This document shows positions 2,189 to 60,379 of a DNA stretch of 64,000 nucleotides, in pieces. Origin of the DNA: Nemertoderma westbladi (lineage: Eukaryota; Animalia; Xenacoelomorpha); the NCBI GenBank assembly GCA_032718475.1, contig JAUCBJ010008720.1:1-64000 (forward strand), read 5' to 3'. Within the stretch, counting starts at the first letter, position 1. Each line of letters starts with the position of its first letter. The translations under genes were made by a program, and so were the position numbers. Below the pieces are notes generated by a model. That model saw only the letters and a list, made by a program, of their open reading frames with translations, did not search any database and was not told the origin of the DNA.

Positions 2189-2203
2189 GAGAGAAAATTT
2201 AGT

Positions 2204-4320: not shown

Positions 4321-4324
4321 GTCC

Positions 4325-21688: not shown

Positions 21689-22087
21689 GTGTGTAAACTT
21701 ATTGCTAAATATGTGTTACAAGAATATGTTTACTATTACTATAATTACTATTAATCCAATAATCTAATATAAATTACAATAAAACATATATAACTGCTAT
21801 GCAACTATATAAATCAAAATAAATTATCCATTATACACATTTCCAAAAAGATGTGGGAGTTGGTTTTGTAACAGCCTTCACTTCAGCAAAGGATATGTCA
21901 CCTATGAGTACGGACTCCGACTGTTATTGTTCCACAAGGTAACCAGGCAATACCCTACCAGGTCAATGTCTAGAAGATACTATTCAAAGAGGGCTTTGAG
22001 CCATTGACGTGATCATCTGGAAATTCAGCCTTACTACTACTATCGGCATGCTGCATTCCAGCTGCATTATATATATTACATAGGTAT

Positions 22088-26368: not shown

Positions 26369-26451
26369 CCAGGCCGCTCCAATGACTCTTCAGGCCGCTC
26401 CAATGACTCTTCAGGCCACTCCAATGACTCTTCAGGCCGCTCCAATGACTC
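26369..26451 (-). repeat. In-frame 21-bp tandem repeat (ESLERPE x4) in pol of B
   Basis: CAGGCCGCTCCAATGACTCTT repeated four times. Confidence 0.9.
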
Positions 26452-35899: not shown

Positions 35900-36953
35900 A
35901 TGTGCGCACATATGTGAGATAGTGAGGACCCGACAGGAGTGCGAAACTGAGAGTGGAAAGGGGTCGAGTAATTGGAGTACTATGATATAATATAAGGATT
36001 TGAGGAGTGATGGAGGGCGCGAATTGCGAAAATGTGGGAGTGAGCCGGGTGGAGGATGAGTCCTATGGGACTAATGAGGTGAGGAGGAAGTGATGGCATT
36101 GGACAACAGTATCCAAGTTAAAATTGAGTGAGGTTGAGGGGCAATCATCTAAATATAGACGGCACATGCCTTGGTAGAACTTAGCTCACAGGTGTACCAA
36201 GGATGGGTAGTGAGAACAGACCCAGTGGGACCTGAGTGGAAGACTGGCCCCAGAGAAGATATTTCCACCCCACATCCAATATTAGATTGGATTCCAGCGG
36301 AATGGAGTGCACTTATTGGTTGATGTTATCTTCTCACCGGGAAGATAGCATGTGTGTTAGCGGATCCATACCACTGCACGCCATCTACCGGGAGAATGGG
36401 GAATAGGGTGATTTAGGAATCACAACTAGGTATCCAATATAATATTGCATACCGAGGGATATGAGGTGAGGCGATGCGAGCCAGGAGATGGTTAATAACA
36501 CATCTCAGGGAAGAAGCAAGCATAGGGCCGAGAGAACATGGGGTGACAGCAGGGGGGGAAACCCAACCAATGGGAGGCCTGCACTTGGCAGAAATAACGT
36601 GTATCTATTGGTTAGTCACGACGTATGTAGAAGTGTGTAATAAGTTTCCATACAATTTACATATATATGTTACATACATATATGTTATATACATACATAT
36701 GGTTTTTGACTGTTGTCATTGTCTGTAGTACTTTGATGGGCTGCAATTCACCAACTTGTACTTATATACATATCAGCTATTATTAACAACAATAATGCAA
36801 TAAGTATTTTAACTCTGATGTTCTGTTATTTATACCAGCCTACAACCTTTCAACCTCGACAGTGGTGATGCGTGCTATAGGTGTTGTCGTATACTTGTCG
36901 TGGTGACAATGATTTATCCGGTCGGGATCCTCGCCAACTCAGATCCCATCACA
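35900..36953 (+). mobile_element. 3' remnant (3' UTR + LTR 36355-36953) of a BEL element related to C (C2)
   Basis: 35900-36352 aligns with 49595-50056. The LTR starts TGTTAGCGGATCC and ends GTCGGGATC...GATCCCATCACA like the C LTRs. The G-rich PPT is missing. Confidence 0.8.
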
Positions 36954-37896: not shown

Positions 37897-37901
37897 TTGA
37901 A

Positions 37902-38550
37902 TGTAAGCGGATTCAATTCCCTACACAACGCAGCGAAAATGGGACCAGTGGCATTTTACCAATATAGTTGGCGATGCGAGATTACCAATAATAATCTCAC
38001 CTCATAACCAACTCGGGGGGGGGGGGCACCCGCCCCAAGCCACAGAGAGAGGTGAGAGGTCAAACCACCTCAGAGGGACAACCCAGCTAAGGAGGCTAGC
38101 ACCAGGGGATAACACCTACAGGGAGTGGCGAAGTGACAATTAGTATATAAGCCAATAGCGGGCAGAAAAGCACGTGGGAAGGACAGGAGGGCATCCATTG
38201 GGTACCAAAGGCCACAGTAGTGTAGAGCTCAAACCAATATGTATCATTCATATAGTTACTCTGATTACTGATTTACCGGTCAGTTGATTATCACATAGTT
38301 GCGGACCGGCATAGTTTTGACCGTCATTTCATATGGTAATTTATATTACTATACTGTTGCTGTCATCATTCTGTATTACAATCTATATTGTTATTTCATA
38401 TACGACTGTGCTATTATCACTGGAGTTATTAATACTGAGAAACAAACTCTATTATTTTCCGCAACGGCCTTCGGCCAAAGATACTAGCCCAGCAGCCCAG
38501 CAGCACGTACAACCTTACCCAGTCGGGATCTGAGAGTCGATCCTGTCACA
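37902..38550 (+). repeat. 5' LTR of element C
   Basis: Direct repeat of 50066-50708/55269-55285. TATATAA box at ~38144. Followed by GTCAAAAC (PBS-like). Confidence 0.93.
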
Positions 38551-38608
38551 GTCAAAACTACCAACAGTAAACTGCTGTGACCACAACCCACCACAGAGAC
38601 CAAGATGA

Positions 38609-41600
38609 GTGAACAACACGAGGAAGAAAGAATGCCGCCGCAGACCCCGGACGACACCAACCAAACGATCCGAGAGGCCGCGACAAGACGATACCAGCCC
38701 CCCCACCCCGGATTCGCCAATGAGGGACATTCCGGATACCCAAGCGGATGGCGGCCGACAACGAGGAGGGAAAGTCAATGAGGAGTCGACGCGAGGTGAC
38801 GACGGCGGTCAGAGTACTGAAGTGGCCGGCCAACCACAGGCCGAGGAGGGTGACAAATGGCCCACCGGAATGGTGACAGTCGGGCCAAAGGTACGACGCC
38901 GGACGAGGAGGGAAGGTAGAGTCAATGAGGAGGAGGACGTCGGGACAAGTCATTACCTGCGACAGGCCTACAACTCTATCAAGAAGATGTTAAAAGAGCC
39001 AAGGAAGGGAGAAAGGTAGACCAGCCTAAACTATATCAGAGGCTAGGTGAGTCTAATAAACACTTTCGTTATTTAGTCCGTTTTGGACAGGGAGAACTGG
39101 CGAGTGAGAGGGCGAGGGGGGTTGCCACAGAACTATTTGAATTGTGGCGATCCGAGGTGATGGAAGCGGACGTAGTGTACGTAGGGCCTTACTTAGTGGA
39201 TGCCAGGGGAATTAAATTAGTGGGATGGGCGGACCTGCACGACGGCGATTCTGAGGTTAACCCCGAGGATTCAGTATCGTCGGTTAGTAGGAACCCCAGC
39301 AAACGTGGGGAAATTAGTAGGACAGAGAGGCGGCGGGAATCCGTTGCAACCGATAAGTCCGCTACATCCTCCACGAAAGCAAGACGGGTGTTGGAGATAG
39401 ATCTGGCGTATCAACTAGACATTGTTGCGCTGGATCAAAAGGAACTGGAAAGGCAGTTGGATGAGGGAACTGCGTTACTAGAGAGGGAGAGAGAATTGGC
39501 GAGAGAGTGTAAAGAGAGGGCCGAGAGGGTGGTGAGAAACTATAGAGAGCGGGAGGAGAGAGAGATAAACGAGCGCAAAGAGCGGGAGGAGAGAGATAAA
39601 TGAGTGTAGAGAGCGGGAGGCGAGGGAGGCAGAATTAGCCAACCAGAGTATGAGGGAGGATAGAGAGAGAGAGAGAGAGAGTAGGTAAACGGTTGCGGGA
39701 TGATATGCATACCCGGCTGAGGGGGTTAATGCAATATCAGGCGAAGCAAAAGCGCCGGTTAGAACTGGCAAAAATGGGTTTATCGGAGAGCGAGGCTGGT
39801 TCGGGTAGTATTTACGAGGAACCAGAGGTGATGGAAACCTTTGTTAATACCCCACTTACAGGTACCGGATGACAGACCCAGGACTGGTGTGACTGTACGG
39901 GCGGGGGGGGGGGGGGGGGGTAATAATAATAAGGTTTGAGGGAGTTAATATTAATAGTACACTAATAGATAACCCTAATCAAACCTTTCTTGCAGGAAAT
40001 AATATTTTACCCGGTAACAATAATCCTAATGTTTGTGTGCAAAATAATTTAAAAAATAATATTAATAATACCGAACAAAATAATTTAAATAATTTAAACA
40101 ACAATTTAGGTAATAATAATATAATAAATAACCCCGAAGAAATTAATCAGAGTAATATCATTAATAACGGTATAACAAACCAGGGCGTATTTATTAACGG
40201 TGCGTTTAACACAAACGTAGGGGGAACAAGCGAGCCGGCGAATGAGAGCCTGCAAGGCCATGCAGTTGCGCAGGGGGGAGCGGGGGTGAATAAACCCAGC
40301 AATGAGAGCCTGCAAGGCCACGCAGTTGCGCAGGGAGGAGCGGGGGTGAATAAACCCAGTGAGGGTAGAGATAATGCGTCGACTAGAGGGGGGTGTAGGG
40401 GCGAGGTAAGAGGTGATGGATGGGGGTGGGGGCTACGGGTACCCTACCACAAGCGATTAGTGGTGAGAAGGGGGGGGGCAGAGAATGTCCCATAAGCGTC
40501 GACGGGTAATGCGCGCGGCGAGTTAAGTGAGCCATGGCACCCAACGGCGAGCGGGAGGGGGGGGCAGAGAATGTCCCTCAAGCATCGGCGGGTAATGCGC
40601 GTGGTGAGTTAAGTGGACCGCGGCACCCAACAACAAAGGATAGTAGGGGGACTGTGAATATCCCCAGGGCCATCCAACCGGGCGGAGGGAGAGACGTTGG
40701 CGCCGTAAGCGGCGAGCGAGAAAACATCGAGCCCAGTCAGAAGATCGAAGAAGAACAGTGGGGTTTATCCGGGAGGTCGAAGCGAGATCTCATGAGGAGG
40801 AACACTGCACTGAAACGAGATGAGGCGAGGAGAAGCGAGGAAGCGTTGCTACGAGCAACCGGAGGGAAAGGACGGACAGCAAACTGTCAGTAGTCGAGAT
40901 GGAGACAGACAGCCAGTGGGATCACACTCCGGGAGATTGCTATCGCCCCGGAGAAACACAACCTGGTGAGATATACCACACACCAGGAGAGGGTTACAGA
41001 GTGTACTGGTATGAGGATGAAGACAGAAGAGGGGACTGAAGAGAAACTTCCCGTCGGAACGTAGCTGCTGATCGAGAATATGGTAATCGCAGGGAGGACT
41101 TCTTGGAATACTCGAGAAGATTAAACTTCGGTCCGGAAGGACACAGGCAGATTGCAGGACATACTCTAGGCCTTACTGCACATACTATAGGCCATGCTGG
41201 GAGAGATAGTGTAAGCGATTGGGTAGCGCGGACGATGGAATTAAATCTGGAAGTCGCGGCGTACATACTGGTCGGTAGGCAAGAAGTGGATAGGCCTATA
41301 CCGGTACCTGCACACCAGTATAACTATAACATGCAGGGACATAATATTTACCCAGGGGAGGGGGGAGGTATTGCCAATAGCTGCATGGGCCCTAACATGT
41401 TAACATAACACCGGTGGGTGGGGGACAGGGTGATATTCCCACATTGCAGTATCACCAATACACTCAGCCAAGAACAAAAACCCCAAACCCCTCAGACCCA
41501 AATAAGTCATGCGACACAGAGATATGGAGGGGACCGTTATCCCGATGATATATCCAACACAAGGAAAGTCGACGGGCCCGATGGGTGAACCGCACCCAAC

Positions 41601-44600
41601 AGCAAGGGAGTCTGTATCCCAATCATCGAGCGCACTGGAAGTACAGGTGATGGGAATGGCAACACTCATCGACGCGCTGAAGACTAGGATCGAGCTACCG
41701 CCAGTGGAGCCTTTCAAATTCGATGGTAGTAAGCCAGAGGAATACCTGCAATTCCGGCGTATACTAACGAAGAACTTGATGCAGGCGGAGTGCCTTAAAT
41801 ACTTACAAGTCTACACAGGGGGGCCAGCATACGACATCATGAGGCAGTACCAAGGAGGATTGAAGGAGGATTCACGACTGCATGGCGAGCCCTGGACAGG
41901 GAATTCGGGCATCCTGCGAAGATCATCCGACAAACCTTAAGGGGAATAACATCAGGCGGACTACAGGATAACCCTGTCAGCATTAAGACCTTCGCGAATA
42001 AAGTCAAAAAGGTGCTGATTGTGTTAAAGACCCTAGATGCACCTTACGAACTCAACGCATCGAATAACATCACTACAATAGTGCAGGTACTACTGATCTG
42101 GCTGAGGAACAAGTGGAGAAAGATCGCCTTCTCCACCCGGGAGAAGAAAGATGCGGAGCCAGGGCTAGAGGAGATGTCGAACTTCCTTAACTATGAGGCG
42201 GAATTGTTTACAGACCCAGTCTACAGTGAGGACAGTTTGGAGAGGGCGCCGAAAGCTGAATATAACAGGCCTAAACCCGAACACCATGCGGCGAATGCAC
42301 TACCAAAATTAAGACAGTCACTACCGTATGCGGCAACACAGGAGACTTGTAGTCCACAGACAGCTGGGAGTAGAGCCACACTGTGTCAGGGACAGAGACA
42401 AAACAACAACACGAACAAATATAATCCCAATACACCCAGTAGGCCGAGTCCAAATAACCAAAACACTAAACCAGTAGATATGAATCTATGCGCAATAGCG
42501 TGAAGGTCTATACAAGGAACGCTACAATCCAGGATACAAATGTCAATTGCATAGAGATGGAACCCATAAGACCATGGACTGTAAGCATTGGCAGGCGTTG
42601 ATTAAACAAGATCGGGTAGCCTATGCTGGTATAAATGGACTATGTCATTGATGCATGGTAGGAGGACACAGATTCGAAGAGTGCAGAGAGACACCAAGAA
42701 AACACGACGAGGTAGATGGAAATAGAGGCCAAACGATGGCGACAAGCACCACGGGAGCGAAGAGAAGGGGAACGGTACTACTTGGGGTGGTACTGGTAGG
42801 ATAATAGGAGAGAGTGGGTGGTCTGTCACAACGTTAATGTTGGTCGACAGCAGAGCAGCGTTCACGCTAGCGGAAAGTTGGGTGGCCGAAGAGATAGGGT
42901 TGCAGACGAGGCCAAGCAAAATGGCGGTAACTACTATCTCGAGTAAGGACAAGTTCTTGAAGATGAGAACGGGACATTGCGAAATATCAGCGATAGCACC
43001 AAGGTGCGATTATGGGGCGACCATCGACCCCATCCAAATAATAGAATCAATTAATATAAACACCAGGAGGCCCACAAGGATCGAGGTTGAGCAATACCGG
43101 TTCCTGGACGATATCGATTTCTCCGTACCTCAACTGGACATCTAGAAGGTATCTCTCATTGTCGGCATGGACTGCCCGATGGCCCACGAGAGACTACGGA
43201 CCATATTTGGAGGGGATAGAGAGCGAGATCCGATGGCGATTCTTACGCCATTCGGATGGACGCTCAGCGGCCCAATAAGACAAGAATTCCGTTTAGCGTG
43301 TCGGAATCCTCAGGGTGCATGTTCGCTGGAACAATGAAGGAAATGGGGGACGAAGGAGCAGAGGAGCAACTCAAGAAGCTGCTGCAGCAGGACTTCGAGG
43401 GATTGAAGGAGACCGGGGTCGGGACCTCGGTGGAGGACAAGCAGGCGCTGGAGAGCGTGAAGAACTCGGTGAAGTGTGAAGGGGGCGGTGTACCATAGGG
43501 ATGGTATGGAAACAACCAATGTTACCGCTACCAGACAATAGAAGGATGGTCCTGACGAGGCTTCAAAAACTGAAGCAGACACTCAGATGGAGCCCCGAGA
43601 AGGATGAATATATCCACAGGATGATTAAGAAATATGTGGACAAAGGGTGGGCCGTGGAGTTACCGGTGGATGAACCAAACACCGACAGGACCTACTATTT
43701 GCCACTGCATGTGGCTTTGGACCCTAAAAAGGGTAAACTACGGATGATGGTCGACGCGTTGGCCAAGACTAACGGCAAGAGCTTGAATGACTACCTGCTG
43801 GAAGGCCCCAACATTTACAACTCAGGGATAGAGGTCCTGTTGAGATTCAGAAATGGAAGGCACGCCTTCACGTGCGACCTCGAAGGCATGTTCAACCAAG
43901 TCTGAGTTACAGAGGAAGACAGCGATAGTCAGCACTTCCTGTGGTACAACGGCGGCGAAGAACCATCAGAGATACCGATGTACAAGATGGTAGTGCAGAA
44001 CATGGGGGTCAAATCGTCCTCGTTCACAACGACTACGGCTATGAGAGACATGGTGGAGGATAAGGAAGGAGAATACAGTGGGAAGGCGATCGACATGATT
44101 CGACGCGGATTCTATGTGGACGATGGGATGGGATCTGGAAACACGGTTGAAGAAATACTCGAGATAGGGCACGAAGTTTGCGATATCCTAAAAGGATCCG
44201 GGTTCAACCTTACAAAATTCCAGTCCAACTCCAAGGAATTCATGAAGGCCATATAGGATAAACGACCAGAGACAACGATGGACAACCCCACAACGGCAAA
44301 GGGACAGATTATGGCAGACAAGAGGGTGGAGTCACAGCAAAAGGCGCTAGGGATCGTGTGGAACTGGGAGATGGATGAGTTGGAGTATCAACTAGGTCAG
44401 GAGGGTGCCGAAATCCATACCAAATGAGGCTATGTATCGTACATAGCAAGGATATACGATCCCCTAGGCCTGACATCCCCGTTATTAGTCATGGGGAAGC
44501 AAATTCTGAAGAAAGTGTATAAGTCAAAGGACGATTGGGATGTGGAGGTCCCGGAGGAAATAAGTAGACAGTGGAACCCCCATCTTGAGGAGATGGGGAC

Positions 44601-46784
44601 ATACAGTATGCCACGCGTGTACTTCCCGGATGGAGACATGACGGATCTGAGTCTGGATATGTTTTCCGATGCATCCTTGGAAGCATACGGAGCGGAACTG
44701 TATTTGGTACAGCGAAATGGGGCTCATAAGCCCAGGCTTGTGTTTAGTAAAGCGAAGTCGACGCCACCAGATTCAGCATCAGTGCCAAAACTCGAGCAAA
44801 TGGCTGCGAGGTTAGGAGTAAGGGCGACAGCATACTTGATGGACACCATACCCAACATAGTGGAAACATACTACTGGACGGATTCCATGGTAGTGTTAGG
44901 GTGGCTACACAACGAGAAGACGTGATACCCTATATTTGTGGCGAACAGGATAAATGAGATAAGGGCAACGACCGATCTGGAAAAGTGGCACTACTGCCCA
45001 ACCGACGACAATCCAGCAGATCTGTTATCGAGGGGTGTTGTACACCACACTTTCTCGAGAAAGCAGGATTTGTGGCAGCATGGGCCGCACTTTCTTTACG
45101 ATAGGTCGACCTGGCCACCAATGAGGAAGGTAGACCCAGGTACGGAGGAAGTAGCAGTAGAAGAGGAGGGAGAGGATTTTGAAGGGGAAGAGATATACAG
45201 CCAATTGGCGAGGGAGATTAAGGAGGTGCCACAGAAACCGAGAGAACCATGCGACAACCCAACAGATAGGTTGCTCAGTTACAGCTCCACCTGGTACAAG
45301 ACTAAGAAGTTGGTAGCATATTTGAGGGCCTACGGGGATTTCCTCAGGGGAGTTGGTAAGGATACCAAAACGAGACCCATTATCGATCTGGAAGGGGCGG
45401 CCAAAGCCGTGATACGATACGAGCAAAGGAAGGGGTACGCGGATGAAGTGAACAGAGTCAGCAAGCAACAGCACCTTCGTCAGGACAGCGAACTCAACCC
45501 ACTGTCTCCGCAATTGAACGATGACGGGATCCTGGTGATGAATTCCAGAGTGGTAAACAACAATAGCCCAGTCATTCCACCAAAACCCATATTAATCCCC
45601 AATAAGTCACCAATAGTCCACCAGATCATATGGGATTCCCATAAATCGATACTACATGGAGGAACCAATCAGACCCTGACAGAGATACGGAAGACGTTCT
45701 GGGTTATCCAACTCAGGAAGATGGTAAAGGCGGTAGTGGGGCAGTGCCAGACCTGCCGACGGACGAAGAAGGAGAGGGCCGTACAGGAGATGGCGCCATT
45801 ACCGGCCAACAGAGTGAGGCGTGATGCCTCACTCTGTATGTGTAAATGGCGGGTCGTGATGACCCGCCATTTACACACTGCGGCGTGGAAATGTTCGGGC
45901 CGATTAAGATAAAGGTGATGCGCCATACAGAGAAACGCTACGGCATTATCTTTGTCTGCAATAACACGAGGGCGGTGGGAATAGAACTTGCACAGGACGC
46001 TACAGCGTCGGCATTTATTAATGCCTTAGAGAGGTTTGTAACCCGCAGAGGAGGGATGGTAGAGGTGTTATATTCAGATTATGGGACCAACTTCGTGGGC
46101 GCAGAAAACGAGTTGGCCGAGGCTCTCGACAACCTAGAGGGAGATGATGTCAGGGCGGCGATGAGGAAACATCTTATAAAGTGGGAGAGGAGAACGCCAT
46201 ACGCACCACATACATTAGGGTTTGTGGAGAGGCTCGTGGGAAGCTCCAAACGCCTGATGACCATACTGATGAACAACCATATTGTCACGGAAGATGTATT
46301 GAGAATGGTGTTAGCCAAGTGCCAGGGGATCATTAATAGCTGACCACTATATCCTGAGAACAACGACCCGGAATCACTGGACATCCTAACACCGGCTCAT
46401 TTACTCATGGAGAGGCCGGCGACGATTGACATGCGAAGTATAGATCCAGACGACATATATTCGCATCAAAGTTGGAAGGTCGCCAAGGCAATAAGCACGG
46501 AGTATTGGACGAGATGGATACAAGAGTATCTTACAACACTACATAAGAGGAGCAAATGGAGGAATACTGGCAGAGAACTGAAGAAGGGTGACTTGATAAT
46601 TGTCACAGAGGACACAATTATCAATAACCAGTGGAGGCTAGCCAGGGTAGTAGAAACCTACCCCGACGAGGATGAAAGGATTAGGTCAGTGGAAGTGAGG
46701 ATTGGAGGAAAGATAGGGGCCAAAGATGGGAAGACCTACAGGAGGGAGGTAGGAAAGTGTTGCCTATTGGAAGGGTCGCCTTAA
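38609..46784 (+). pseudogene. Disabled gag-pol of element C
   Basis: PFKFDGSKPEEY (gag), LVDSRA (protease), GFYVDDG (RT), MFSDAS and YYWTDSM (RNase H), HGG...CQTC and YSDYGTNFVG/VERLVGS (integrase), WIQEYL (C-terminus). Many stops and frameshifts. Confidence 0.93.
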
Positions 46785-46919
46785 AGTTTAGTTGTCCAAT
46801 ATATTGGACTGAGGGGGTGGGAATGACGGCGAGACGCCCTTCCCACACATAAAATAAAGAAAATAAACAATCAAAATAATAAAATAAGTACTTAGTATTG
46901 TAGGTAGTAGATAGTAGTA

Positions 46920-47095
46920 GGGTACATAGTACCATAGAACCTATGGGCACTGAGGGCGCCATGTGAGGAATTGAGGGGTATGTACGCATACCATAGTATT
47001 AGGGTACATAGTGAGTACCATAGAACCTGTGGGCACTGAGGGCGCCACATGAGGAATTGAGGGGTACACAGTACCATAGAACTTGTGGGCACGTG
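46920..47095 (+). repeat. Short tandem repeat (~2.5 copies) between pol and the extra ORF
   Basis: GGGTACA..GTACCATAGAACCTRTGGGCACTGAGGGCGCCA..TGAGGAATTGAGGGG repeated. Confidence 0.85.
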
Positions 47096-47562
47096 GGTAC
47101 AGCAGGATAGACTGTGTAGGCCGCACGAAACAGACTACTGTACCGCACAGCCCGTAGTGTAAGTATAGGCTATTGTTACAGAGCCAGAAAGCTGTTTGGT
47201 AGGAAGCTAGCGCAGTAATAAAATTATAGCTAGTCTTCTCTGTATACAAATAGAGGGGTTACTTAAGTAAGTAATCTGCTGACAGTTGTTTATAGCACAG
47301 TGAGGGGGGAATATAAATAATATCAAAGTTAGAAAAATAATAAATTATAGCAACTGGGGGGAGGGAATTCTAGAATCATAATTAAAGTAACGGACAGATT
47401 TTGTAAATTAGAGAAAATTGGCACTTTGGGGGTATATTTGCAAAAATATACCAAGAAAGTACAACCTAGGACGTAGGCCATTACTGAACGAAACTTATAA
47501 CATCCTGTTTAACGGCCCTCACTTAAATTGAGCCTTTGTAAGGCCCCACCAATTGGGTGAGC

Positions 47563-49302
47563 ATGGGAAAGTTTGTGATGGCGGAGAGGTTAGTAAGGAA
47601 GAGAAAGGCGGAGAAAACTGGGAAGGAGCTACTAGTGGACTTCACGCAGAGGCATCCGGAGGAGAAAATGAAAGGATACTACTAACCGAAGTATCCGAGG
47701 GAACCATCGAGGAAGGAATGGAGGAGGTTTGTAGAGTCTGTGAGCAGGGGTGGGTACATGGTCCTAGATGACGAAGGGACTGTGGAGGATGACGAGGGTT
47801 CGAGAAGCGGGTCGGCGGGATCGGCTAGAACTATACTACTGCATTTGGCAGCGCCAAACGGAGATATCTTTCTATTCGACCTGGGGACCTACGGGAAGAA
47901 GAGCGGGCCAAAGTTGAACCGGTTGCCGAGGGCGGAGCAGGACCTTGTGAGACAGAAGACTACAGTTAAGGTGGGATCGGCGATCCGCGACAATGCGGAC
48001 AGGATGATTGGACTGGACACCCCCAAACTCCTGGACATGCAAGTAGTCTATATGGCTATGACGGGGCCAGAGGGGTTGGGATTGGTAGAGAACACGCGAC
48101 ATTGTGGAGCCGTGGCGATGGGCCAACTGATGGGGCTCATCTGCCACAAGCCGATGGACTGAGGGAAGTTCCGGGAGGAATACGGAGCAGAACTTGTGAA
48201 CTCGCTGAAATGGGGAGCGAGACCAGGAAAGCAGGAGGTATATCAGTTCCGAAGGGGAGCGATAAAGATATATCAGAAGAGATATATCTTACAGGAGGAT
48301 TGGGTAATGATAGGTTTATTAAACCTATTCATGGCCGTGGTTATCGGAAGAGAGCCGGCGGTGTTTCTACTATCAGGAGCACCTCTAAATTACAGGAGAG
48401 CCTTTAAGGTGGCCTTGGAGGATCTTGTAGACCACTAGGGGCTGAAGGGCGAGTCGGTATACTACGACAGCCGACACCTAGTGGACAGAGAGGTGGATAC
48501 ACCGTACAAGAGGTGGAAGAAGTTGGAAGCGGATAGAGTCGAGGAGAGGAGACTGGAGGAGGTCATGAGGAGAGAAAGGAAGGATCGGAGAGAGAAGCAG
48601 ATATAAGGGGAGAGGAATACGAGTTTGAAGCCCAGAACCTGGATGAGCTGAGGTGGGGATCGGAGACCTTCGGACCTTCGGAGTTTCTAGGGGATGAACT
48701 GGGATGGATGGAAGTCAAACCACTCGAAACAGTCGACATCGGGATTGCAAGCAATGCCCATACCAGGGGGCTCTGAGGGTGATTTTGGAAGGAAGAGACG
48801 GAGGGAGCTGGAGGGGTGGAAAGTCATGGGTGGAAACCAAGGTGGAAAGGGACATAGTGGATCTACCAGGTTACCGGGTTCGGGTCCACTCCCGGCGAGA
48901 GAGGAAGATGACGACGAGTTCGGGGTGATGCCGCCGATAGAGAGAATTGCGACCCCAGCGGGGGAAGAGGGGGAGGATGAGTTCGGCGCGATGCCGCCGA
49001 TTGCGAGGATTGGCCACTCAGATACGGACTGGGTGGGCAGGAGGGTGGTGATGGCCAGCGGGGCGAGAGCCTTCTGGGGCAAACCCGGCAAGCGGGCCTG
49101 GGAGCACGGGGAGCCGGCGATGGATTTTGCGGCAAGTACGATCAGGTTGGGCGAGCAACTGGGAACGGCACCATGGGTAGTGTTTGGGGAGACGATGCCG
49201 ACGGTGGAGGAAGTATGGAAGAAGAGTAAGACGGTATCAGCAAGGATGATGAGTCTCAAGGAGGATAAACCAGAGGGAAGGAAGCAGGCCCAGACAAGAT
49301 GA
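47563..49302 (+). pseudogene. Extra ORF of element C: DEDDy-type 3'-5' exonuclease-like domain + acidic/Gly-rich C-terminal region
   Basis: ATG at 47563. ORF pieces 47740-48162, 48196-48438 and 48694-49302 are all in the same frame. Point stops at 47683, 48160 and 48436; further stops or frameshifts between 48438 and 48694. Motifs in WRN/RNase D order: YMVLDDEG, LLHLAAPNGDIFLFDL, LP...VKVGSAIRDN, LLDMQ, YQKRYILQED. Confidence 0.72.
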
Positions 49303-50065
49303 CGATAGGGGCAAAGAACTCAGATGGTTCCCGAAGACGGAGGAGCGAACTAGAACTCAGGAACAGAGATGTGGGTGTGCCTGCAAGGCACCACATGTAG
49401 GAAAGAGTACAAACTCCTAAGTGCAAAAATAATCAAGTGCAATTAGTATGTACGTACGTAAATAATTAATTAAAACAATATATAATAAATGTGTTTACTA
49501 TAGTCACACACAACCTTTTCCAACTAGCTACTGGGATTGGGGACCGATTGACTATGACAGAAGGACGATTCATAAGACGGATCCCATTTCTCAAGTGTGG
49601 CCACACTAATGATAATGTGGGATCCTGACAGGAGGGCACGAAGAACGGAGTAAAATATCGGTTGAGTATAGGGGAATTGGGGGGAAGTACAGAGAGGATG
49701 CGTAGGGGTGAGAGGAAGTGAAAGGAGTGCAATTCAAGTGTGGGGAGCGAGCATTGATGGAGGATGAGTCCCAAAGGGACTGGTAAGAGAAGAAGGGACA
49801 AAGGTCCATGAGGAAAGTTTGAGAAAAAATAGTGTGGAGAGTGAGGACAATGATCTCAAACAGAGACACCAGATACCTTGGTGCAACATAGCTCGCGATT
49901 GCACCAAGGATGGGTAGTAATAACAGACACAGAGGGAGCGGTGTAGAAAGCCGACCCCGAGAAGAAACTCCACCCCACATCCAAAATTAGATTGGATTCC
50001 AGCGGAATTGAAGCACACTTAAGGTTGATGCTATCTTCTCACCGGGAAAATAGCATGGGGGGGAG

Positions 50066-50708
50066 TGTAAACGGATTCAATTCCCTACACCACCCACCGA
50101 AAATGGGACTAGTGGCATTTTACCAATATAGTTGGCGATGCGAGATTACCAATAATAATCTCGCCTCATAATCAACTCGGGGGGGCGACACACGCCCTAA
50201 GCCACAGAGAGAGGTGAGAGGTCAAACCACCTCAGAGGGACAACCCAGCTAGCGAGGCTAGCACCAGGGGATAACACCTACAGGGAGTGGCGAAGTGACA
50301 ATTAGTATATAAGCCAATAGCGGGCAGGGAAGCACGTGGGAAGGACAGGAGGGCATCCATTGGGTACCAAAGGCCACAGTAGTGTAGAGCTCAAACCAAT
50401 ATGTATCAATCATATAGTTACTCTGATTACCGATTTACCGGTCAGTTGATTGATTATCACACAGTTGCGGACCGGCATAGTTTTGACCGTCATTTCATAT
50501 GGTAATTTATATTACTATACTGTTGCTGTCATCATTCTGTATTACAATCTATATTGTCATTTCATATACGTTAATTAATAATTTTGTTATTAATACTGAG
50601 AAACAAACTCTATTATTTTCCCCAACGGCCTTCGGCCAAAGATACTAGCCCAGCAGCCCAGCAGCCCAGCAGCCAAGTGACGCATACAACCTTACCCTGT
50701 CGGGATCT
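50066..50708 (+). repeat. 3' LTR of element C (main part; last 17 bp displaced to 55269-55285)
   Basis: Matches the 5' LTR up to CGGGATCT. The remaining GAGTCGATCC..CACA lies beyond the LINE. Confidence 0.92.
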
Positions 50709-52224
50709 ATTTATATTTATTTATTTATTTATTTATTTATTCCATACAATATATATATATATATCAATATAATTATTAATTACATACACGTCATCCATAT
50801 TCTACACTAGGGCCTAAAATATTAATTACTAAAAGGAATGCACAAAAATGGTATTATTAACAAATTATCAGTATAACATTGAGGAATCTAACATCGATCT
50901 CATTCTTGAACAGTGCTGTGTTCCCACGGCAACTGTTGATACTAGATTATTAGTGGTAGCATCAATCCTATTAAATAAATTGACTATGGATTTATGACGC
51001 AAATGGATGAAACACGGCAAGCTGTGCACACCAAAAAACAGCGACATACTACCGCGTACTGGTAATGAAAATAGCAATCGAGCAGCACTGTTGTAAGCAA
51101 CTTTGATACGATTATGAACAGAGTGCAAGTAATTATTGCGCGACCACAAGGCGTTGCAATATACCGGAGTTATAAACGACCTAAATAATTGTACCTTAAC
51201 AGACGTTGAGCAGGATTTAAATTTACGCATCAACATGTTACCTCGAGCATAGATGCCACGTGTGGCCTTCCTAATATCGAAGTCATCGTCTCTGGTGTCA
51301 TGTATCACGTGACCTAAATAAGTAAATTTAACTGCACGTTCAATCTGTATGCCATATAAGTACATGGGAGGAAACATACAAAATGAGTCCTTAGCTATAA
51401 AGTACATAACCTTTGTTTTCTTCATATTGAAAATAATATTATGTAATTGTGAATATTTAAAACAATTATCAATCAGCCGTTGTAAGCCAATAGCAGAGTT
51501 CGATATTAGGCAAATATCATCTGCGTACATTGTGATTGAGTCTAGTCCCATCTAACATACAGCCAACACTTGTATCAACTAAACTGAAACTAAGGTCATC
51601 CATATACACATTGAAAAGATATGGTGATAATATTCCACCTTGTTTTACGCCATTTATCACAGTAAAAGATATTGATTTCGTCACGCCCCATTTAACACAA
51701 AGCGTTTGGTTGCGGTACCAAAAAACAATTACTCTTATAATAAACAGGGGTATCTTTCTGTCAATCAATTTGCGCAATAAAATATCATGGTCTATCCGAT
51801 CAAAAGCCTTGCTCGAATCTAGAAAACAGACATATACACTAGAAGAGTTGTGCAAATAAAAATCAATAATTTCCTTTAGTGTATATACACATAAATCAGT
51901 ACCACTGCGGCGTTTAAATGAGAATTGATAGTCACTAGTAATTAAATAGGATTCAATACGAGAAAATATCACATACTCAAAATACCTTACTTAGTAAAGT
52001 CGCAATCGCAACTGGTCTATAATTGGATTTATCACATAGAGGACCATGTTTATCTTTAATAATGGGAATTATAACGCTATGTATTATACTTTCAGGTATG
52101 TACCCATGAACGTTCATAGAACTTAACAGTATCGATAAAAAAGTATTGAGCCGAATGCTATTGCTGTACACAAAATGCTCAGCAGCAATACCATCTGGTC
52201 CAACCGCATTTCCTAATTTTAAAT

Positions 52225-53976
52225 GGCAGTGATTTTTTATGTCCTTTTATTTGACTTTTTTTGTCATTTTTTTTACGAATTATGCATAATGACTTTTGTT
52301 GTCCTTTTAATTACTTTCATTGTCCTTTTAATGACTTTTTATGTATGTATTTCTTCAAACTGTCAGACTGCTGATTTCTGGACTGTCAGACAGTTGATTT
52401 CACTATGCCTGTGCCAAAACATTCCATGATTCCATGATTTATAGACTATGAGATAGATTTCCATATGCGCCTGTGGTAAAAAGACTCTATATTTAATAGT
52501 TTGTGGTTGTTGTCGATAATCGATTACCACATGACGTAGCAAAACACTCATTTTATAGCCAAAAACAATTACCAATTGATGGAAAGGAGCAGGTTAAGGC
52601 CGAGTTTTCTAACCAAAACAATAAACAGTCACTTTACCAAATCAGGGAAAGGAGCAGGTTACAGAGACGGGATTTTCTAACCAAAACAATAAACGATCAC
52701 TTAACTAATTGAGGGAAAGGAGCAGGTTACAGAGGCGGGATTTTCTAACCAAAATAATAAACGATCAATTAACTTATTAAGGGAAAGGAGCAGGTTACAG
52801 AGGCGGGATTTTCTAACCAAAACAATAAACGATCATTTAACTAATTGAGGGAAAGGGACAGGTTACAGAGGCGGAATTTTCTAACCAAAACAATAAACGA
52901 TCACTTAACTAATTGAGGGAAAGGAGCAGGTTACAGAGGCGGGATTTTCTAACCAAAACAATAAACGATCATTTAACTAATTGAGGGAAAGGGGTAGGTT
53001 ACAGAGGTGGGCCTTTCTAACCAAAACAATAAACGGTCACTTTACCAATTCAGGGAAAGGAGCAGGTTACAGAGGCGGGATTTTCTAACCAAAACAATAA
53101 ACGATCATTTAACTAATTGAGGGAAAGGGGCAGGTTACAGAGGCGGGATTTTCTAACCAAAACAATAAACGATCATTTAACTAATTGAGGGAAAGGAGCA
53201 GGTTACAGAGACGGGATTTTCTAACCAAAACAATAAACGATAACATTACCAATTGAGAGAAAGGAGCAGGTTACAGAGGCGGGATTTTCTAACCAAAACA
53301 ATAAACAATAACATTACCAATTGAGGGAAAGGAGCAGGTTACAAAGGCGGGATTTTCTAACCAAAACAATAAACGATCACTTAACTAATTGAGGGAAAGG
53401 AGCAGGTTAAGGCCGGATTTTCTAACCAAAACAATCAAGCAATCAAAACCAAAACAGTCACTTTACCAAATCAGGGAAAGGAGCAGGTTATCCGTAACAC
53501 TACTCAGACAGTAGTCATGATCCATTATTGATTATAAAACTAATACAGTAATAGGCCTAAATTATGTGAAAGGTATATCCACATTTTCCACAATCCTGCA
53601 ATCCAGTTTAGCCTATCAATTATTTAAAATTTATTAGCACAACCGGTAGGCCTACCATTACCGTATTTAAATGGTAGGCTACACAGTAGGCCTACCATTA
53701 CCGTATTTAAATGGTAGGCTACAGTACACAGTAGGCCTATAGCAGTACCGGTGCCGGTACCGGTACTAAAATACAGAAATACCTGCTTTATACCTACATC
53801 TGTACATACAATACAGCAAAATAGTGCTATATATACTAATACCGGTACTGATAGCCTGAGAGAACAGCAGTAGAGAAACCGGTAGCATGGAACCTAACAT
53901 TAGACTTTTGGAGGACATAAAAAATAAAAAAAAAAGGACAAAAAAAGGATTTAAACGGACAATAAAAATTATTGCG
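52225..53976. mobile_element. Non-autonomous MULE-type DNA transposon, copy 2
   Basis: 9-bp TSD ATTTTAAAT (52216-52224, 53977-53985). Same termini as 7520-9140. Confidence 0.9.
52570..53490 (+). repeat. 60-bp tandem array (~15 units)
   Basis: Same monomer as 7870-8596. Confidence 0.95.
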
Positions 53977-55538
53977 ATTTTAAATTTGAGATTGCACAGC
54001 TAATCTCAGATGGGCTGATAATCATATCACTACAATATAATAAATCTTCTAATGAGTTATCTACAAACGACCTGTTGGATTTACTTTCGTCTGAATTAGC
54101 ATCACAACAATTTAAAAGATTACAATATTCCTGCTTAAACATATTACCAATCAACTTCTCACCAACTGCACCACTAACTACATTTGGTAACGGCACCGCA
54201 CTACTATTTTCTTTTTTAACCGAATTCCAAAAAGTGGAATAATCTTTCTTAATTTCGGCCTCTGCAATTTTATTGCACCGAATTACTTTTTCATTTCTTT
54301 TACATTGACGCAAACAGCGTTTAAAATCGGCCTTTGAAACTAAATAGCGCCTGTGCAGCTCCCCCTGTCGGGCTGATCCTGCACCACGCCACATTTTAAA
54401 AATACTTCGACATAAATCATATTTTTCTTTTACAATATCGTTCCATCCTGGAACATTGTGCTTATTAAAACTGTCGCCAGTGAGTTTAACCGGAATAGTT
54501 TTAGCGGCACAATCCAACACAACTTCGGAAATTGAGTCCCAAAAGTTAGACATATCTTGATGGTGGTCCTTACAGTTAGCATTTGTACATTTAACACCAC
54601 TAGGAATAACAATATTACGTAATGAGGCCTCTACACGATTACTGTAGTTCACCAGATTATCTGGGGTAGCTGACCCCCATTGAGGAGAACGCACAGTACT
54701 TCGTGACTTGGGTGCCTCCTCACAATGAATATAATCCGCTACAATTACGTCTAATGAAAATGTAAATGGCATATGATCATCAATACTGAGATCATAGAGT
54801 AGATCAATGTCCTGCACCGATAGTTCTATGCTACTTGAACAAATAACATGGTCCAGCCATGAGGTTGAACCATGAGCTGGACTAACGAATGTGAAACTAT
54901 TTGGTGGTAGTCTCATAACATCCGCTATAGAGAGATTTAATTCTTGACACCATTCAGATAAATCCGTATAAAAGGACTTTCCTGGCGATGCGTTAAAATC
55001 CCCACAGATGCAGTCTTGCTAGTTGGTGCTGTATCTATTATCGACTGTATTTTACCAAGATATTCACTATATAAATCACGATTATCTATATGTTGATACG
55101 GAAAATAAACATTCAGCATCAAAACTTTGGAGCCATCATTTAGATTAATGTAAAAACAGATCAATCTATTGTCCTCACGTGGTAAAAATTCAATGCTATT
55201 AAGAAATTGTTGTCTCACAAGAACAGATAGTCCCCCAAATGGGCGACCTCGGAGGATCCCATCACATTGAGTCGATCCCATCACATTGAAGGACACCTGT
55301 GAAGGATACCGTAGGTTAATGAACTCATTAATAGGGGGGTTCGATTATTACTCCAAATAACGTTTGTAGGCATTAATTTTTGTCACCAGTTGGCTTAATG
55401 AGTTCATTTGAAGTAATAAGGCCACCAGTTGTCTAATTGTGATATTCGACTACTATATCAAACAAGTAATTTGCAAAATAGATCTCTTACTCAATAGTTT
55501 AAAATAGAAAATTAAGGAAAAAATATATTAAAATATAA

Positions 55539-57098
55539 TTAGTTAATAGTCGATTGAGGATGGTAAGGCAATATCAATAAGAATTTAGTTTTATTTACTG
55601 TTTTAATATAATAAAATAAATATATTTCAAGGGCTAAGGGCCCACATTGTCAATAATCAACTGAATGTAAACAGAATTAATGAATTATTACAGCTACCTA
55701 TTTATGAAATGTTTTTAACAGTACAAAGGTACCTAACTACCTAACTAATAAATTACTATACGCACAAAATTATTTAATTTTCAGGAACCCCCCGCTTTCC
55801 AACACTGCTATACTTAGATGATCTAAAGGCCATAAACCGAAATACCCACCCAGAGGTATAGTGTATCAGATACCGTGTTGCTGTGGCAACATATATGTAG
55901 GCCAAACCTTATACAGTCTTGATGTCCGTCTGACCCAGCATCAGGGCGATGTTAAACACCGTAGGCCCAAAGCATCCGAGTTGTCAGGCCATCATGTAGC
56001 TACTGGACACATTCCATTATGGGATAGGGCAACAGTGATAGGGAGAGTGTCAGACTTGCACGGTAGGCTAATATTAGAGAGTATGTATATTAAATCATAG
56101 GGACCCCGGGCAGTTAACAAGAGATTATCCACAGACGTAGATCATTTAAGGGGGGGGTACACCATTTTCGGACAACTCTTTGATTTATCACTCTCAGCGT
56201 TTCAAAATTGTTTGATTTTGGCTAAAATTTGGTATATAGGTGCCTAAGATGCTATTCTACATGACAAGTCAGAAAATTTTTTTTTTTCGCTATTTAATAT
56301 TAGTTAATACTAGTTAACAACAAAAAAAACTTGGTTGCGCTTAAAACCCTAAGGCTTTTACAGTTTTGAACCTAATCACATGAAAGTTTTTTTATATGAT
56401 AGATCAAAGATGGGGCAACATAACTATCAGGCGAAATTTTGTTAAAATAATTCTGCACCGCTAGGTGGCGCTGCAAATTTATGCAAATTTTTAGGTTTTT
56501 TATAAATAGTATTAAATTTTATTAACAAAAAATTTCGAAAAGTTGCCTGATACTTTTATGCAGGGTGGCTATCTAGACACCCACAGGAAGTTTCAGACTA
56601 ATTACTCAAAAATTGTAGAAGTAGTAGGGTTTTGAAGTTGACAATTTCATGAAAAAAATATTTGGAGATAATCGACCTTTCATTATACATAGTAATAGTA
56701 ATTTCAATAGGATTCCGTAAATGGAAATTTACATAACTTGAAAACTAAAAGAGCTATTAAATAGCGGTTTTCAGATTTGGAAATACCATTCAATGGTGCA
56801 TTACAATAGACCATAAAAAAAATTTCGACATATTTTGGACCAAAATGGTGTACCCCCCCCTTAAGTATAGCAGTGTTGTAAAGCGGGGGGTTCCTGAAAA
56901 TTAAATAATTTTGTGTGTATAGTAATTTAGTAGTTAGGCAGTTAGGTACCTTTGTACTGTTAAAAACATTTCATAAATAGGTAGCTGTAATAATTCATTA
57001 ATTCTGTTTACATTCAGTTGATTATTGACAATGTGGGCCCTTAGCCCTTGAAATATATTTATTTTATTATATTAAAACAGTAAATAAAACTAAATTCT
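55539..57098 (+). mobile_element. Penelope-like 3' fragment (GIY-YIG) with upstream inverted pLTR
   Basis: GIVYQIPCCCGNIYVGQT...RLTQH at 55855-56100. 55576-55825 is the reverse complement of 56138-57102 after removing the MITE. 13-bp direct repeat TATTAAAATATAA at 55526-55538 and 57099-57111. Confidence 0.85.
56150..56860. mobile_element. TTAA-flanked MITE with GG termini (Kolobok-type)
   Basis: TIRs GGGGGGGGTACACCATTTT / AAAATGGTGTACCCCCCCC. TTAA at 56146-56149 and 56861-56864. The empty site is preserved in the inverted pLTR copy. Confidence 0.88.
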
Positions 57099-58254
57099 TA
57101 TTAAAATATAAAATTAAAATGAAAGGGACGGCGATAACATGTCTGTATTGTTTGTAATAATTAATTGTTGAAATTAAGTAGGTAGAATGTGTATTATTTG
57201 TGCGAAATGCTATACAACTTTTGAGTGAATCCAATTCCCAAAACATAATTATCACTATGAGACATGTAACGTCGTATGTTTCGAGAATATAATTTATTTC
57301 GTAGAATTACTTGATTTTTAGAAACTCAGTGGTCAAGTAATTGAATTATAGGAAAAGTGACTCATTTATTAGTTTTTGTTTTATTTTTTATTGGGCCCTT
57401 GACACGTCTGATTTTTATTGGGCAAGTGACTGATTGTGCAAATAGCATATTGGATAAGTGACTGAATTCGGAAAAATAGCCTATTTGAGTACAATTTTAT
57501 TAGATATAAGAACTAAAATTTATTTTTTCTGTAATTTAGAATGAAGGCTTGAATTAGCATCAAATATCTCGTGATCTATTGTAATTATATCACGATTTTA
57601 CTCTAGAGTGGGGTCATTTTGATTGTGTATCCAGACACACAAGGGCGGATCCAGGGGGTGGGCCAAGGGGGCCATCCCCGAAAAACTGAAACAAAAAGCG
57701 AACATGAAATGTGGGTTTCACAAATTCAAGACCTGTATTTTTGTATAATAATGACATGCTAACCATATTTAGATAGTTAGTAACCTTATTATTTGGATAA
57801 GTTACCATTCCCAATAATTATTCCTTTCCCTACACGCTCATAAACAGCTTCTATGATATTAGTAAAGTTCCACTCTCTTTCAATATAAACAGTACAGTCC
57901 TCCTGTGAAATAGTCGCCCCTTTCGGGCAGATAGGAGGGGAAACTGGACACACACAGAAAAATTTCTCACCAGGGGAAACTGAACGCAAATCTCAGAAAT
58001 GGTGGATTTGGGAATAAGGTATTTGGGATTTGGGAATAAGGTATTTGGGATTTGGGAATAAGGTATTTGGGTTTGGGAATAAGGTATTTGGGATTTGGGA
58101 TTAAGGTATTTGGGAATATGGTATTTGGGAATAAGGTATTAAAGATTTGGGAATAAGGGATTTGGGAATAAGGAATTTGGGATCTGCCATTATTGGTTCA
58201 CTGAAGAAGATACGCAATGCGTCTCATTACGGCATTACAGGTACCACTAACTCA

Positions 58255-58500
58255 ATCGGTGTGTCTGTTGTTCTGTTGATCTGTTGTTCTGTTGATCTGT
58301 TGTTCTGTTGATCTGTTGTTCTGTTGTTTTGTCGTTCTGTTGTGTCCAATTTTAAACGTTAATAACTCAGCCAAATCTCGATAAAATATATCCAAACTTG
58401 TTACATATGTAGTCTGGCAAAAAATTAGAAATTTTCCAAGTTGAATTTGCGTGGGGTCTTCGTGCAGCATCTGTGTAACTGTCTTGCAGTTATAATAAAT
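58255..58500 (-). mobile_element. Possible HINE-like fragment with (CTGTTGTT/CTGTTGAT)n microsatellite
   Basis: An 8/16-bp microsatellite is followed by AATTTTAAACGTTAATAACTC...CCAAACTT-type sequence. Termini not resolved. Confidence 0.35.
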
Positions 58501-59712
58501 TGATTTACCCAAAAATTATTAGCCTTGGCATCACCTGGTTGCTAGGAGACTGCAGCATATATCAGGTGGGTTTGAAATTCAGTAATACCGGTACAATGCA
58601 GGAATGCAGCAATGTGGTAGGCCTATTTCAGTATTTCACTTTCCTCAGCCATTCCATCCAGCATTTCCAGATTGCAGAGTTAAGAGTACTCAGTTATTCG
58701 CGACTATTCAGCCCAAGGCCATCTAAACAACGGGCTATGACAAGGACCTTGCCTTCAAAATTATCGTAGGCTGACTGTACAGATTATGGCACGGGTGCCG
58801 TAATTCAGGGTGACTTGATACAGTTTTTCCTTTAACTGTGAATATCTTATGAAGATTTTATCCTACACAGATGGAATAAAAAGATTTATTTCAATAGAAT
58901 TTAAATTATTAATAATTATTTATTATTTATTATAATTATTATTATTAATATTTATATTATAAGATTTAAATAGAAAGAGTTATTTAGATGGCCTTGATTC
59001 AGTCATATCATGTACCGGTGCGGTACCTTAATCTTATTAAACATATGTTTTACAGTATGGTACCGGTTCTGTTACAGTGCTACAGAGTTACCGGTACCGT
59101 CTTCAGGTCGTTGGCGCCACCCACCAATCGGCTCGGCAAAGGCAACCATGCAGCAATGGAAGTTTTGAAATTATGCGGACTTAAGACAGACTGCATATTG
59201 TCAGGTTGTACAAGCTGACCTTTATTCCATGTCCCGGTATCCACTACTGCACTAGGCACCCCAACAGCCCAATACTGCAATACCCAGCAACGTTTTGGAT
59301 TTGTACCGGTACTCAAACAACTTGCCATCAAGGCCACCGCCTCTGCCTGTCGCAGTGTCGTTGGCGACCTCGACTTTCGGTATCTCTACTGCGCTAGTGA
59401 TACGGGCAAACTGGACTAACCGATGAGCGAGACCCAAAGACTGAAGAATGCATTGAATTTGTTGAGTAGTTTGACTGTGTGTGGACTTCTATTACATCGA
59501 TGCCAAGCTACCAATGCGAAAATTTCTTTTAAAATAAAAGTTTGGTTAAATTTTCTTAATTATTTATTTAAATTTCTTAAGTACCGATTTTGGGATAGAA
59601 TTGCTCAATTGTAATCTGTATCTAATAACTGACCCTCGTCCTGCGCGAAGGCCCCACGGACGTGTATCTTTACGTTTAAAGTTTTTCATACATATACAAC
59701 GTTTCTTCAGCC

Positions 59713-60200
59713 TCTCCCAAACACTCCACTGTACGAGAACACGCCCTAGACGAGGATCACACCTTCAATTACAATGACTTCTCAATAATAGGTAGAGCTG
59801 ATACTAATTACGACCTATTAATTAAAGAAAGCCTAGTTATCTCCCGCCACAGACCTACTCTAAATATTCAGGGAACCTCATTCCCTTTACTATTGTTCTA
59901 AAAACTACACACACTACATAGACCGTATCTACAGTACTATACAGTATGTATTAATTAATATTGGTGTTGTACTCATTATCAATTTAGTTGTCTGATTTCA
60001 TGATTTTACCGTGCACTATTTTACTTAATTCAGTATTACGTATGCAAGTAGTTAGGCTCCTATATCTTCTCGTATTGTAATGTTTTCACATATTTTGCAG
60101 TAATATTAATAATTTAGAATGTAATTTAAACTTTATGTATCTTACTGTAGTATTGGCTGATGATGGTTTAATGTAATAAATCGAAACGTTCCGCTTAATT
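59713..60200 (+). mobile_element. Penelope-like 3' fragment (GIY-YIG C-terminus + pLTR)
   Basis: 59713-59901 translates SPKHSTVREHALDEDHTFNYNDFSIIGRADTNYDLLIKESLVISRHRPTLNIQGTSFPLLLF*, a typical PLE C-terminus that is not in the ORF track. A hammerhead motif lies downstream. Confidence 0.85.
60155..60192 (+). ncRNA. Minimal hammerhead ribozyme motif
   Basis: GG-CTGATGA-T-GGTTTA-atgtaa-TAAATC-GAAA-CG-TT-CC. The core and stem II are intact and stem III is the palindromic AACGTT, but stem I is only 2 bp. Confidence 0.65.
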
Positions 60201-60379
60201 AATTATGGCATTCTTTTCATTCGCGCTAATTATTATAATTTTACTACGATTACGTTACCCCACTGGGACTTCAATAACCTACGTTTCTCTCTCTCCAGTT
60301 TTTTTTCATGTATATTTAACTCTAACAATAATATTTTAATATATATACGCTATATATGTCTGTGTATTTCGGTGCTTCA

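Follow-up and report, generated by a model that had tools for sequence, protein, structure and literature searches.

The window is a 64,000-nucleotide stretch of Nemertoderma westbladi DNA (contig JAUCBJ010008720.1, positions 1 to 64,000). It contains one decayed member of a multi-copy family of BEL/Pao LTR retrotransposons; in this copy a third gene, ORF3, lies between pol and the 3′ LTR. The features of this copy are as follows.

37897–37901, + strand: candidate 5-bp target-site duplication TTGAA, 5′ copy
37902–38550, + strand: 5′ LTR (TG...CA, 649 bp), its 3′ end inferred through a 17-base match at 55269–55285
38609–42660, + strand: long, broken gag region with low-complexity N-terminal pieces, DUF1759 (below cut-off) and a broken zinc knuckle at about 42643
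42726–46784, + strand: broken pol with protease, RT (YVDD at 44113), Pao RNase H (Peptidase_A17), integrase H2C2 and core, and DUF5641; stop at 46782–46784
46785–47562, + strand: non-coding spacer of about 780 bases with short internal repeats, separating pol from ORF3
47563–48438, + strand: N-terminal part of ORF3, with a DEDDy-like domain at about residues 47–262 (D69/E71, N144, W217, Y241/E245); stops at 47683, 48160 and 48436
48439–49302, + strand: C-terminal part of ORF3, with a charged helical stretch, an acidic, Gly-rich linker, a two-copy acidic repeat (48891–49012) and a terminal segment of about 90 residues
50057–50065, + strand: polypurine tract
50066–50708, + strand: main part of the 3′ LTR, with 91% BLAST identity to the 5′ LTR
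50709–55268, − strand: later insertion of about 4.6 kb into the 3′ LTR, with LINE-like RT pieces and a nested element carrying a 68-bp tandem repeat
55269–55290, + strand: candidate 3′ LTR end (17 bases) and 3′ TTGAA copy (55286–55290)

A first-pass annotation, made from the sequence alone, had assigned this element to BEL/Pao, and the domain content bears the assignment out. Within gag-pol, the Pao-type domains Peptidase_A17 (E 7e-36), DUF5641 (E 2e-25) and Integrase_H2C2 (E 5e-11) matched Pfam above cut-off, and the order is protease, RT, RNase H, integrase. DUF1759, the aspartic protease, RVT_1 and rve scored below cut-off, yet they fall in the correct order between 41.8 and 46.8 kb. The stop at 46782–46784 also confirms the end of pol at 46784, as proposed earlier. 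The gag-pol region is fragmented into 18 stop-free pieces of at least 70 codons, spread over three frames. With the integrase as the query, viral contigs yielded no related element. Ahead of the gag core, 38609–41500 holds about 2.9 kb of open pieces, which is unusually long, with a stretch rich in Asn and with short tandem duplications; the three pieces scanned from this region had no Pfam match.

The LTR pair is separated by a K2P distance of 0.053 over 622 columns, with 16 transitions and 16 transversions. The polypurine tract had been placed at 50057 and does start there, with the 3′ LTR beginning directly after it. The RT pieces in the insertion that interrupts this LTR are ones we take to be LINE-like from motifs in their translations. 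Beyond the insertion, 15 of the 17 bases at 55269–55285 are identical to the end of the LTR. A TTGAA duplication had been said to close the LTRs, and TTGAA is indeed present on both sides, which makes it a plausible target-site duplication of the element. However, the 3′ LTR is interrupted at 50708 and the DNA beyond 55290 does not resume the repeat that hosts the element's 5′ end, so the duplication is only partly confirmed. No TGG-type or tRNA-Arg/Gly primer-binding site was seen at 38551–38600, after the inferred 5′ LTR end of this decayed copy, and the 64-kb window holds no tRNA genes.

The element resembles Belpaoviridae (Semotivirus), as described in PMC8742986 and PMC3118150, in its LTRs of about 650 bp, its PR-RT-RH-IN order, its Pao-specific Pfam domains, its polypurine tract and its candidate 5-bp target-site duplication; members of the family have two LTRs of 0.2–1.2 kb, which the studied pair fits. 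In contrast to the family profile (PMC8742986), it carries a third gene that is not env-like, shows no clear 18-nt tRNA-Arg/Gly primer-binding site and is about 12.8 kb long, which exceeds the ICTV range of 4.2–10 kb and lies inside the bounds of 2–15 kb given in the available text of PMC3118150. The ICTV profile names no genes other than gag, pol and env-like ones (PMC8742986), in agreement with the earlier statement that extra genes of BEL/Pao elements are normally env-like.

ORF3: reading frame, copies and selection

Read from the ATG at 47563, ORF3 is interrupted up to 48438 by three point stops alone (residues 41, 200 and 292), and all of the peptides quoted in the first-pass annotation are present in it. 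The other two forward frames have 24 and 5 stops over the same interval. Over the whole of 47563–49302, the ATG frame contains 7 stops, the terminal one included, versus 36 and 13 in the other two, and composition leads one to expect about 29. The description of a frame broken only by point stops holds to 48438, but the stretch onward to 49302 is different. A codon model trained on the element's own gag-pol, and used to pick the frame window by window, prefers the ATG frame to about 48580, the +2 frame at about 48583–48700, weakly the +1 frame near 48763, and the ATG frame again at about 48820–49240. By this model, ORF3 probably underwent frameshifts near 48580–48820 after small indels, and the stops at residues 348, 363 and 376 are probably out-of-frame readings. 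The original product was likely a protein of about 580 residues; two ORFs would be a conceivable alternative.

The codon usage and purine skew of ORF3 are like those of pol. ORF3 does not have the features of an env gene (a signal peptide, a membrane anchor and Cys-rich composition): its N-terminus is charged, it has 2 Cys in 579 positions, and its best 19-residue hydropathy is 1.77, an internal peak on the predicted last helix, with no convincing membrane segment. The earlier reading of the gene as something other than env is thus upheld. In the tail (48891–49302), the acidic motif occurs twice and is followed by a Trp- and Gly-rich segment of about 90 residues, which may fold into a small domain. 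A Pfam search with 48691–49299 gave no match.

Copies of the family were sought in four DNA runs, of which the three large ones represent two samples under one organism label. These three yielded 3957, 5944 and 4035 contigs placed on 46300–50100, and the fourth yielded 48. The contigs fill 30 of 30 bins of this interval, mostly at 80–99% identity. The first-pass annotation had allowed that ORF3 might be absent from other copies, but this is not so, as thousands of contigs cover the ORF and both flanks. No single contig from these runs on 46300–50100 joins pol and ORF3 in another copy, and the continuous cover suggests that the two are linked there.

We examined the best 40 of 836 variant places, of which 17 fall in ORF3 and 13 in 47563–48438. 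At three of these 13, the contigs are nearly fixed against the window copy, marking its private changes. The remaining ten, in the exonuclease part, are segregating: nine affect the third codon position and one the first, and all ten are synonymous, as judged by hand against the sequence. With equal positions, at least nine of ten at position 3 has a probability of about 4e-4 by hand arithmetic, a value for rows pre-selected as the best 40 of 836. The exonuclease-part variants in this selection cover residues 206–266 only, and the ten segregating ones were all seen in a single pair of contigs from one run and are not independent. At the pol end, eight of the nine variants listed among the best 40 are likewise at codon position 3. 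Together, the many diverged copies and the synonymous segregating variants support that ORF3 is a real, multi-copy, selected gene of the family, with a synonymous bias in the part examined.

Likeness of ORF3 to DEDDy exonucleases

Blind searches did not place ORF3 in any family. There was no match in Pfam at E values up to 10 with filters, so that the PF01612-type library match expected from the first-pass annotation was not obtained; nor was there one in NCBIfam, in PDB sequences, in 5.8 billion word-indexed clusters (lengths 318–1014 and 160–510), in viral contigs or in phages. The best PHROGs entry, one unknown family at E 0.16, did not amount to a match, and none of 217 pattern matches in metagenome contigs was confirmed. 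Neither E. coli RNase D nor a single bacterial WRN-like domain gave a hit in pairwise BLASTP. Two kinds of candidate were rejected: a Haloferax hypothetical protein without a Pfam family, found in a plasmid search at E 0.2, was attributed to chance, and two insect cuticle proteins, the sole matches in an unfiltered search of 1.84 billion representatives, to repeats summing a short match.

The DEDDy hypothesis was picked by eye from the ORF3 sequence itself and then tested with fetched DEDDy domains, using ORF3 residues 1–291 with X at the stops as the query. As controls, a 14-sequence profile recovered WRN, Mut-7, EXD2, Egalitarian and EXD1 in the PDB, and a 27-sequence WRN-like profile recovered WRN at 1e-30; EXD1 and Egalitarian were unlisted at E 0.01 with the latter, and remote members therefore score weakly. 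For the deepest profile, a 60% identity filter reduced 164 sequences to 66 DEDDy domains, most of them bacterial. In pairwise HMMER comparisons, the ORF3 signal became stronger as the profile deepened: E 0.087 with 14 sequences (235 of 2000 shuffles as good), 0.0036 with 27 (12 of 2000), 0.002 with 42 (1 of 2000) and 2.8e-4 with 66, where none of 2000 shuffles and none of 436 six-frame tiles of the window did as well. This last value corresponds to about 7 at the scale of a Pfam-sized search, that is, not significant blind.

Comparison by hhalign with the 66-sequence profile gave a probability of 44% and a P of 2.3e-4 over residues 47–166, which none of 150 shuffles equalled in local and global mode. 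The match was kept with six random halves of the profile (P 1.3e-4 to 2.3e-3), and it was negative with two shallow profiles (P 0.14). Among the controls, none of 14 other proteins from the window came closer than P 0.029, and with five unrelated profiles P was at least 0.055. Glocal z scores were 4.2–5.0 with the 66-sequence profile and 2.0–3.6 with a 42-sequence WRN-only profile, for which up to 17 of 436 decoys scored as high. The first-pass annotation had called the match to DEDDy domains established; the targeted profile tests support it, but no blind library search finds DEDDy, and the word was too strong. On this match, with published precedent as a prior, ORF3 very probably has a DEDDy exonuclease fold in a very divergent form.

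The positions given earlier for the motifs (D69 at 47767, E71 at 47773, D143–N144 at 47989–47994 and Y241 at 48283) proved correct. In an unguided MAFFT alignment with 34 bacterial domains, to which ORF3 is 12–20% identical, D69, E71, W217 and Y241 occupy invariant columns, and K136, N144, Q238 and E245 fall on conserved ones. The WRN/EXD/RNase D-type assignment is thereby supported in the register first proposed for the ExoI, ExoII and ExoIII columns. The ExoI D-x-E motif, which in DEDDy enzymes ends strand 1, is present as D69/E71. The ExoII column carries N144 in place of Asp in the studied copy, and at ExoIII this copy reads Y241-x3-E245, then D-W, instead of Y-x3-D in the MAFFT register. 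That register, which agrees with the YxxxE-D described before, comes at the cost of insertions of about 12–18 residues before W217 and before ExoIII; in the glocal and hhalign alignments, an acidic residue comes to lie there only if an insertion of 12 residues is allowed, and the ExoIII register is ambiguous. The ExoII Asn had been attributed to CpG decay. This is chemically possible, but there is no strong CpG signature (CpG observed/expected of 0.81 in ORF3; 16 transitions versus 16 transversions in the LTR pair).

ORF3 thus shares with the WRN exonuclease, EXD2, Nibbler (Mut-7) and RNase D (PF01612) the order and spacing of an ExoI DxE, a KxG before ExoII, an xxD strand, a Trp and a Q-x-x-Y. 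It differs from this group in its identity of 12–20%, its lack of a Pfam hit, its Asn at ExoII, its Glu at ExoIII and its insertions of about 12–18 residues. Since two catalytic columns deviate in the studied copy, we file the protein as DEDDy-like and not as a canonical DEDDy enzyme. This copy does not yield a working enzyme, since three point stops cut its frame, the tail has probably been frameshifted and ExoII carries Asn.

The single-sequence AlphaFold model of ORF3 had a pLDDT of 33 and no Foldseek match, and was uninformative. When AlphaFold was run on the DEDDy alignment, the pLDDT rose to 76 and the model matched WRN with Z 14.7 and an rmsd of 2.9 over 166 residues, but this comparison is circular: the alignment supplied the fold, and the match therefore shows compatibility only. 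Foldseek ranked Nibbler and EXD2 first for the alignment-driven model, a ranking that cannot assign a subfamily. For the same reason, a viral origin or subfamily read from the Foldseek/VIA rankings was rejected.

Precedents and candidate roles of the ORF3 protein

The Juno and Vesta lineages are Gypsy-like and carry a dUTPase. As the first-pass annotation noted, DEDDy extra ORFs are described in rotifer elements, namely bdelloid Juno, Vesta and Terminons (PMC5408684), and the available text of PMC6431247 and PMC6338049 repeats the DEDDy ORF3 account of bdelloid elements or Terminons. The Juno/Vesta ORF3 is a DEDDy protein with a DEED motif and intact catalytic residues, its function being undemonstrated (PMC5408684). 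The gene studied here resembles it in being a separate ORF3 between pol and the 3′ LTR, in its probable RNase D/WRN/Mut-7-like DEDDy character without a membrane segment, and in its deviant acidic motif. It is set apart from their descriptions by its BEL/Pao carrier, by reading D-E-N-E in this copy versus DEED, and by a tail of about 290 residues. Terminons and Dada DNA transposons, which belong to other element classes, are also mobile elements with a DEDDy 3′-5′ exonuclease, and in Dada the domain sits inside the transposase with all four catalytic residues (available text of PMC6431247 and PMC3706591).

The word BEL does not occur as a whole word in PMC5408684, and exonuclease is absent from the main text of PMC3118150 and PMC12440569, as far as their available portions go. 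Searches of full-text literature turned up no exonuclease ORF in any BEL/Pao element, in line with the earlier remark that no BEL lineage with DEDDy cargo had been described; Repbase, most subscription papers and supplements (such as the sequences of PMC3118150) lay outside this scope. What would be new is BEL/Pao as the carrier of a nuclease cargo, since such cargo in this slot is already published for other LTR lineages.

Nibbler and Mut-7 trim the 3′ ends of small RNAs, and the class closest to ORF3 includes small-RNA 3′ trimmers and RNA-binding pseudo-nucleases. We favour, at a probability of roughly 0.5, the reading that this BEL/Pao copy carries a divergent WRN/EXD2/Nibbler-type DEDDy gene with a charged tail, whose product acts on RNA 3′ ends and blunts small-RNA silencing. 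Because a 780-base non-coding spacer precedes it, ORF3 would be a separate protein and not part of Pol, presumably made from a spliced or subgenomic RNA, as stated for ORF3s in general (PMC5408684). Its action on RNA 3′ ends would take place outside the particle, and host small silencing RNAs would be its most likely target, with blunted silencing as the aim. Working copies have about an even chance of being catalytically active; small RNAs or their precursors are, overall, a tentative choice of substrate and rather less likely than not. It is rather doubtful that an active Nibbler/WRN-type exonuclease without a detectable relative among 1.84 billion representative proteins, acquired apart from the Gypsy cases, trims or destroys host piRNAs or siRNAs.

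EXD1 and Egalitarian provide model roles for an RNA-binding link to transport or granule machinery. ORF3 could similarly be a pseudo-nuclease of DEDDy fold that lost catalysis long ago, its domain binding RNA and its charged tail linking the element's RNA to such machinery. The deviation of two of four catalytic columns in the studied copy (N144 and E245) points this way, as do the extreme divergence, with no homolog found among 1.84 billion representatives, and the inactive DEDD derivatives retaining RNA binding that are noted in PMC5408684. We nevertheless consider it unlikely. The ExoI pair D69/E71, W217 and Y241 are retained, Glu for Asp is a conservative change, and bdelloid ORFs also deviate (DEED) yet were judged intact (PMC5408684); N144, moreover, may be a private change of a copy against which three of 13 places, among the best 40 of 836, are nearly fixed. 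An active exonuclease might instead serve the element's own replication by trimming the primer, the 3′ end of the genomic RNA or the cDNA ends, or by proofreading RT, and such roles are proposed for bdelloid ORF3s (PMC5408684; available text of PMC6431247) and for the DEDDy domains of Dada transposons (available text of PMC3706591). No canonical TGG-type primer-binding site follows the 5′ LTR where its end is inferred, which could indicate unusual priming but may also reflect decay or a wrongly placed LTR end. We find this role improbable, as ORF3 is unfused to Gag or Pol, lies behind the 780-base spacer with no evident way into the particle, and is dispensed with by most BEL/Pao elements, which replicate without such a gene. 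That spacer also makes RT proofreading the least likely of the three roles proposed in the first-pass annotation.

The gene might also be real and selected but of another or a new fold, its likeness to DEDDy being a chance alpha/beta pattern chosen by eye. Every blind search was negative, hhalign assigned a probability of no more than 44%, and the alignment of the C-terminal third is ambiguous; against these stand a match that rises with profile depth, survives six random halves and beats all shuffles and the other window proteins, and residues that fall correctly, and in the correct order, on invariant columns. We hold a different fold to be quite improbable. Least credible is a fragment captured or inserted just once and without a function for the family: no single contig links ORF3 to pol in other copies, but the thousands of contigs at 80–99% identity over the ORF and both flanks, the synonymous segregating variants listed among the best 40 of 836, and the agreement of codon usage and purine skew with pol largely refute this reading.

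If the DEDDy gene on a BEL/Pao carrier is true, a second major LTR group, beyond the rotifer elements, would have acquired nuclease cargo, and such recurrence would suggest that the cargo brings a shared advantage. The rotifer families have few copies, and variation in their ORF3 seemed neutral where tested, on env-like and GDSL ORFs (PMC5408684); the many diverged copies of the present family make selection on the catalytic residues directly measurable and a nuclease role testable. Should the destruction or trimming of piRNAs or siRNAs by an active ORF3 exonuclease be true, doubtful as we hold it, the protein would be an LTR-retrotransposon-encoded enzymatic suppressor of small-RNA silencing.

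Other elements in the window

Two further BEL/Pao-type copies lie on the − strand (13491–20039 and 24588–35796). They belong to another family, are about 80–84% alike mutually and have about 30% protein likeness to the studied pol; the second is broken near 27283–28137 by a LINE-like piece. By tblastn, neither contains an ORF3 homolog. Within 36120–36420, a run of 233 bases is 80% similar to 49826–50057, the 3′ untranslated region of the element under study, and is followed by a TG-starting sequence unlike the studied LTR, without a G-rich polypurine tract. From its sequence, this is probably a fragment of a related subfamily.

An intact-looking frame of 274 codons at 20943–21767 encodes an amino-acid transporter, which we take to be SLC7-like. 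It is probably a host exon, and no close bacterial relative of the frame was found. On the − strand, 1749–4418 contains pieces that, by their motifs, are presumably Penelope-like RT and GIY-YIG-like, and perfect inverted repeats of 51–54 bases lie nearby. Two copies of the element with the 68-bp tandem array occur at 7514–9152 and 52219–53990, with main blocks 94% alike. A pair of 246-base inverted repeats, 98% alike, is found at 55571–57107, and 57973–62277 holds an 84-bp tandem array within an element with telomere-like inverted ends.
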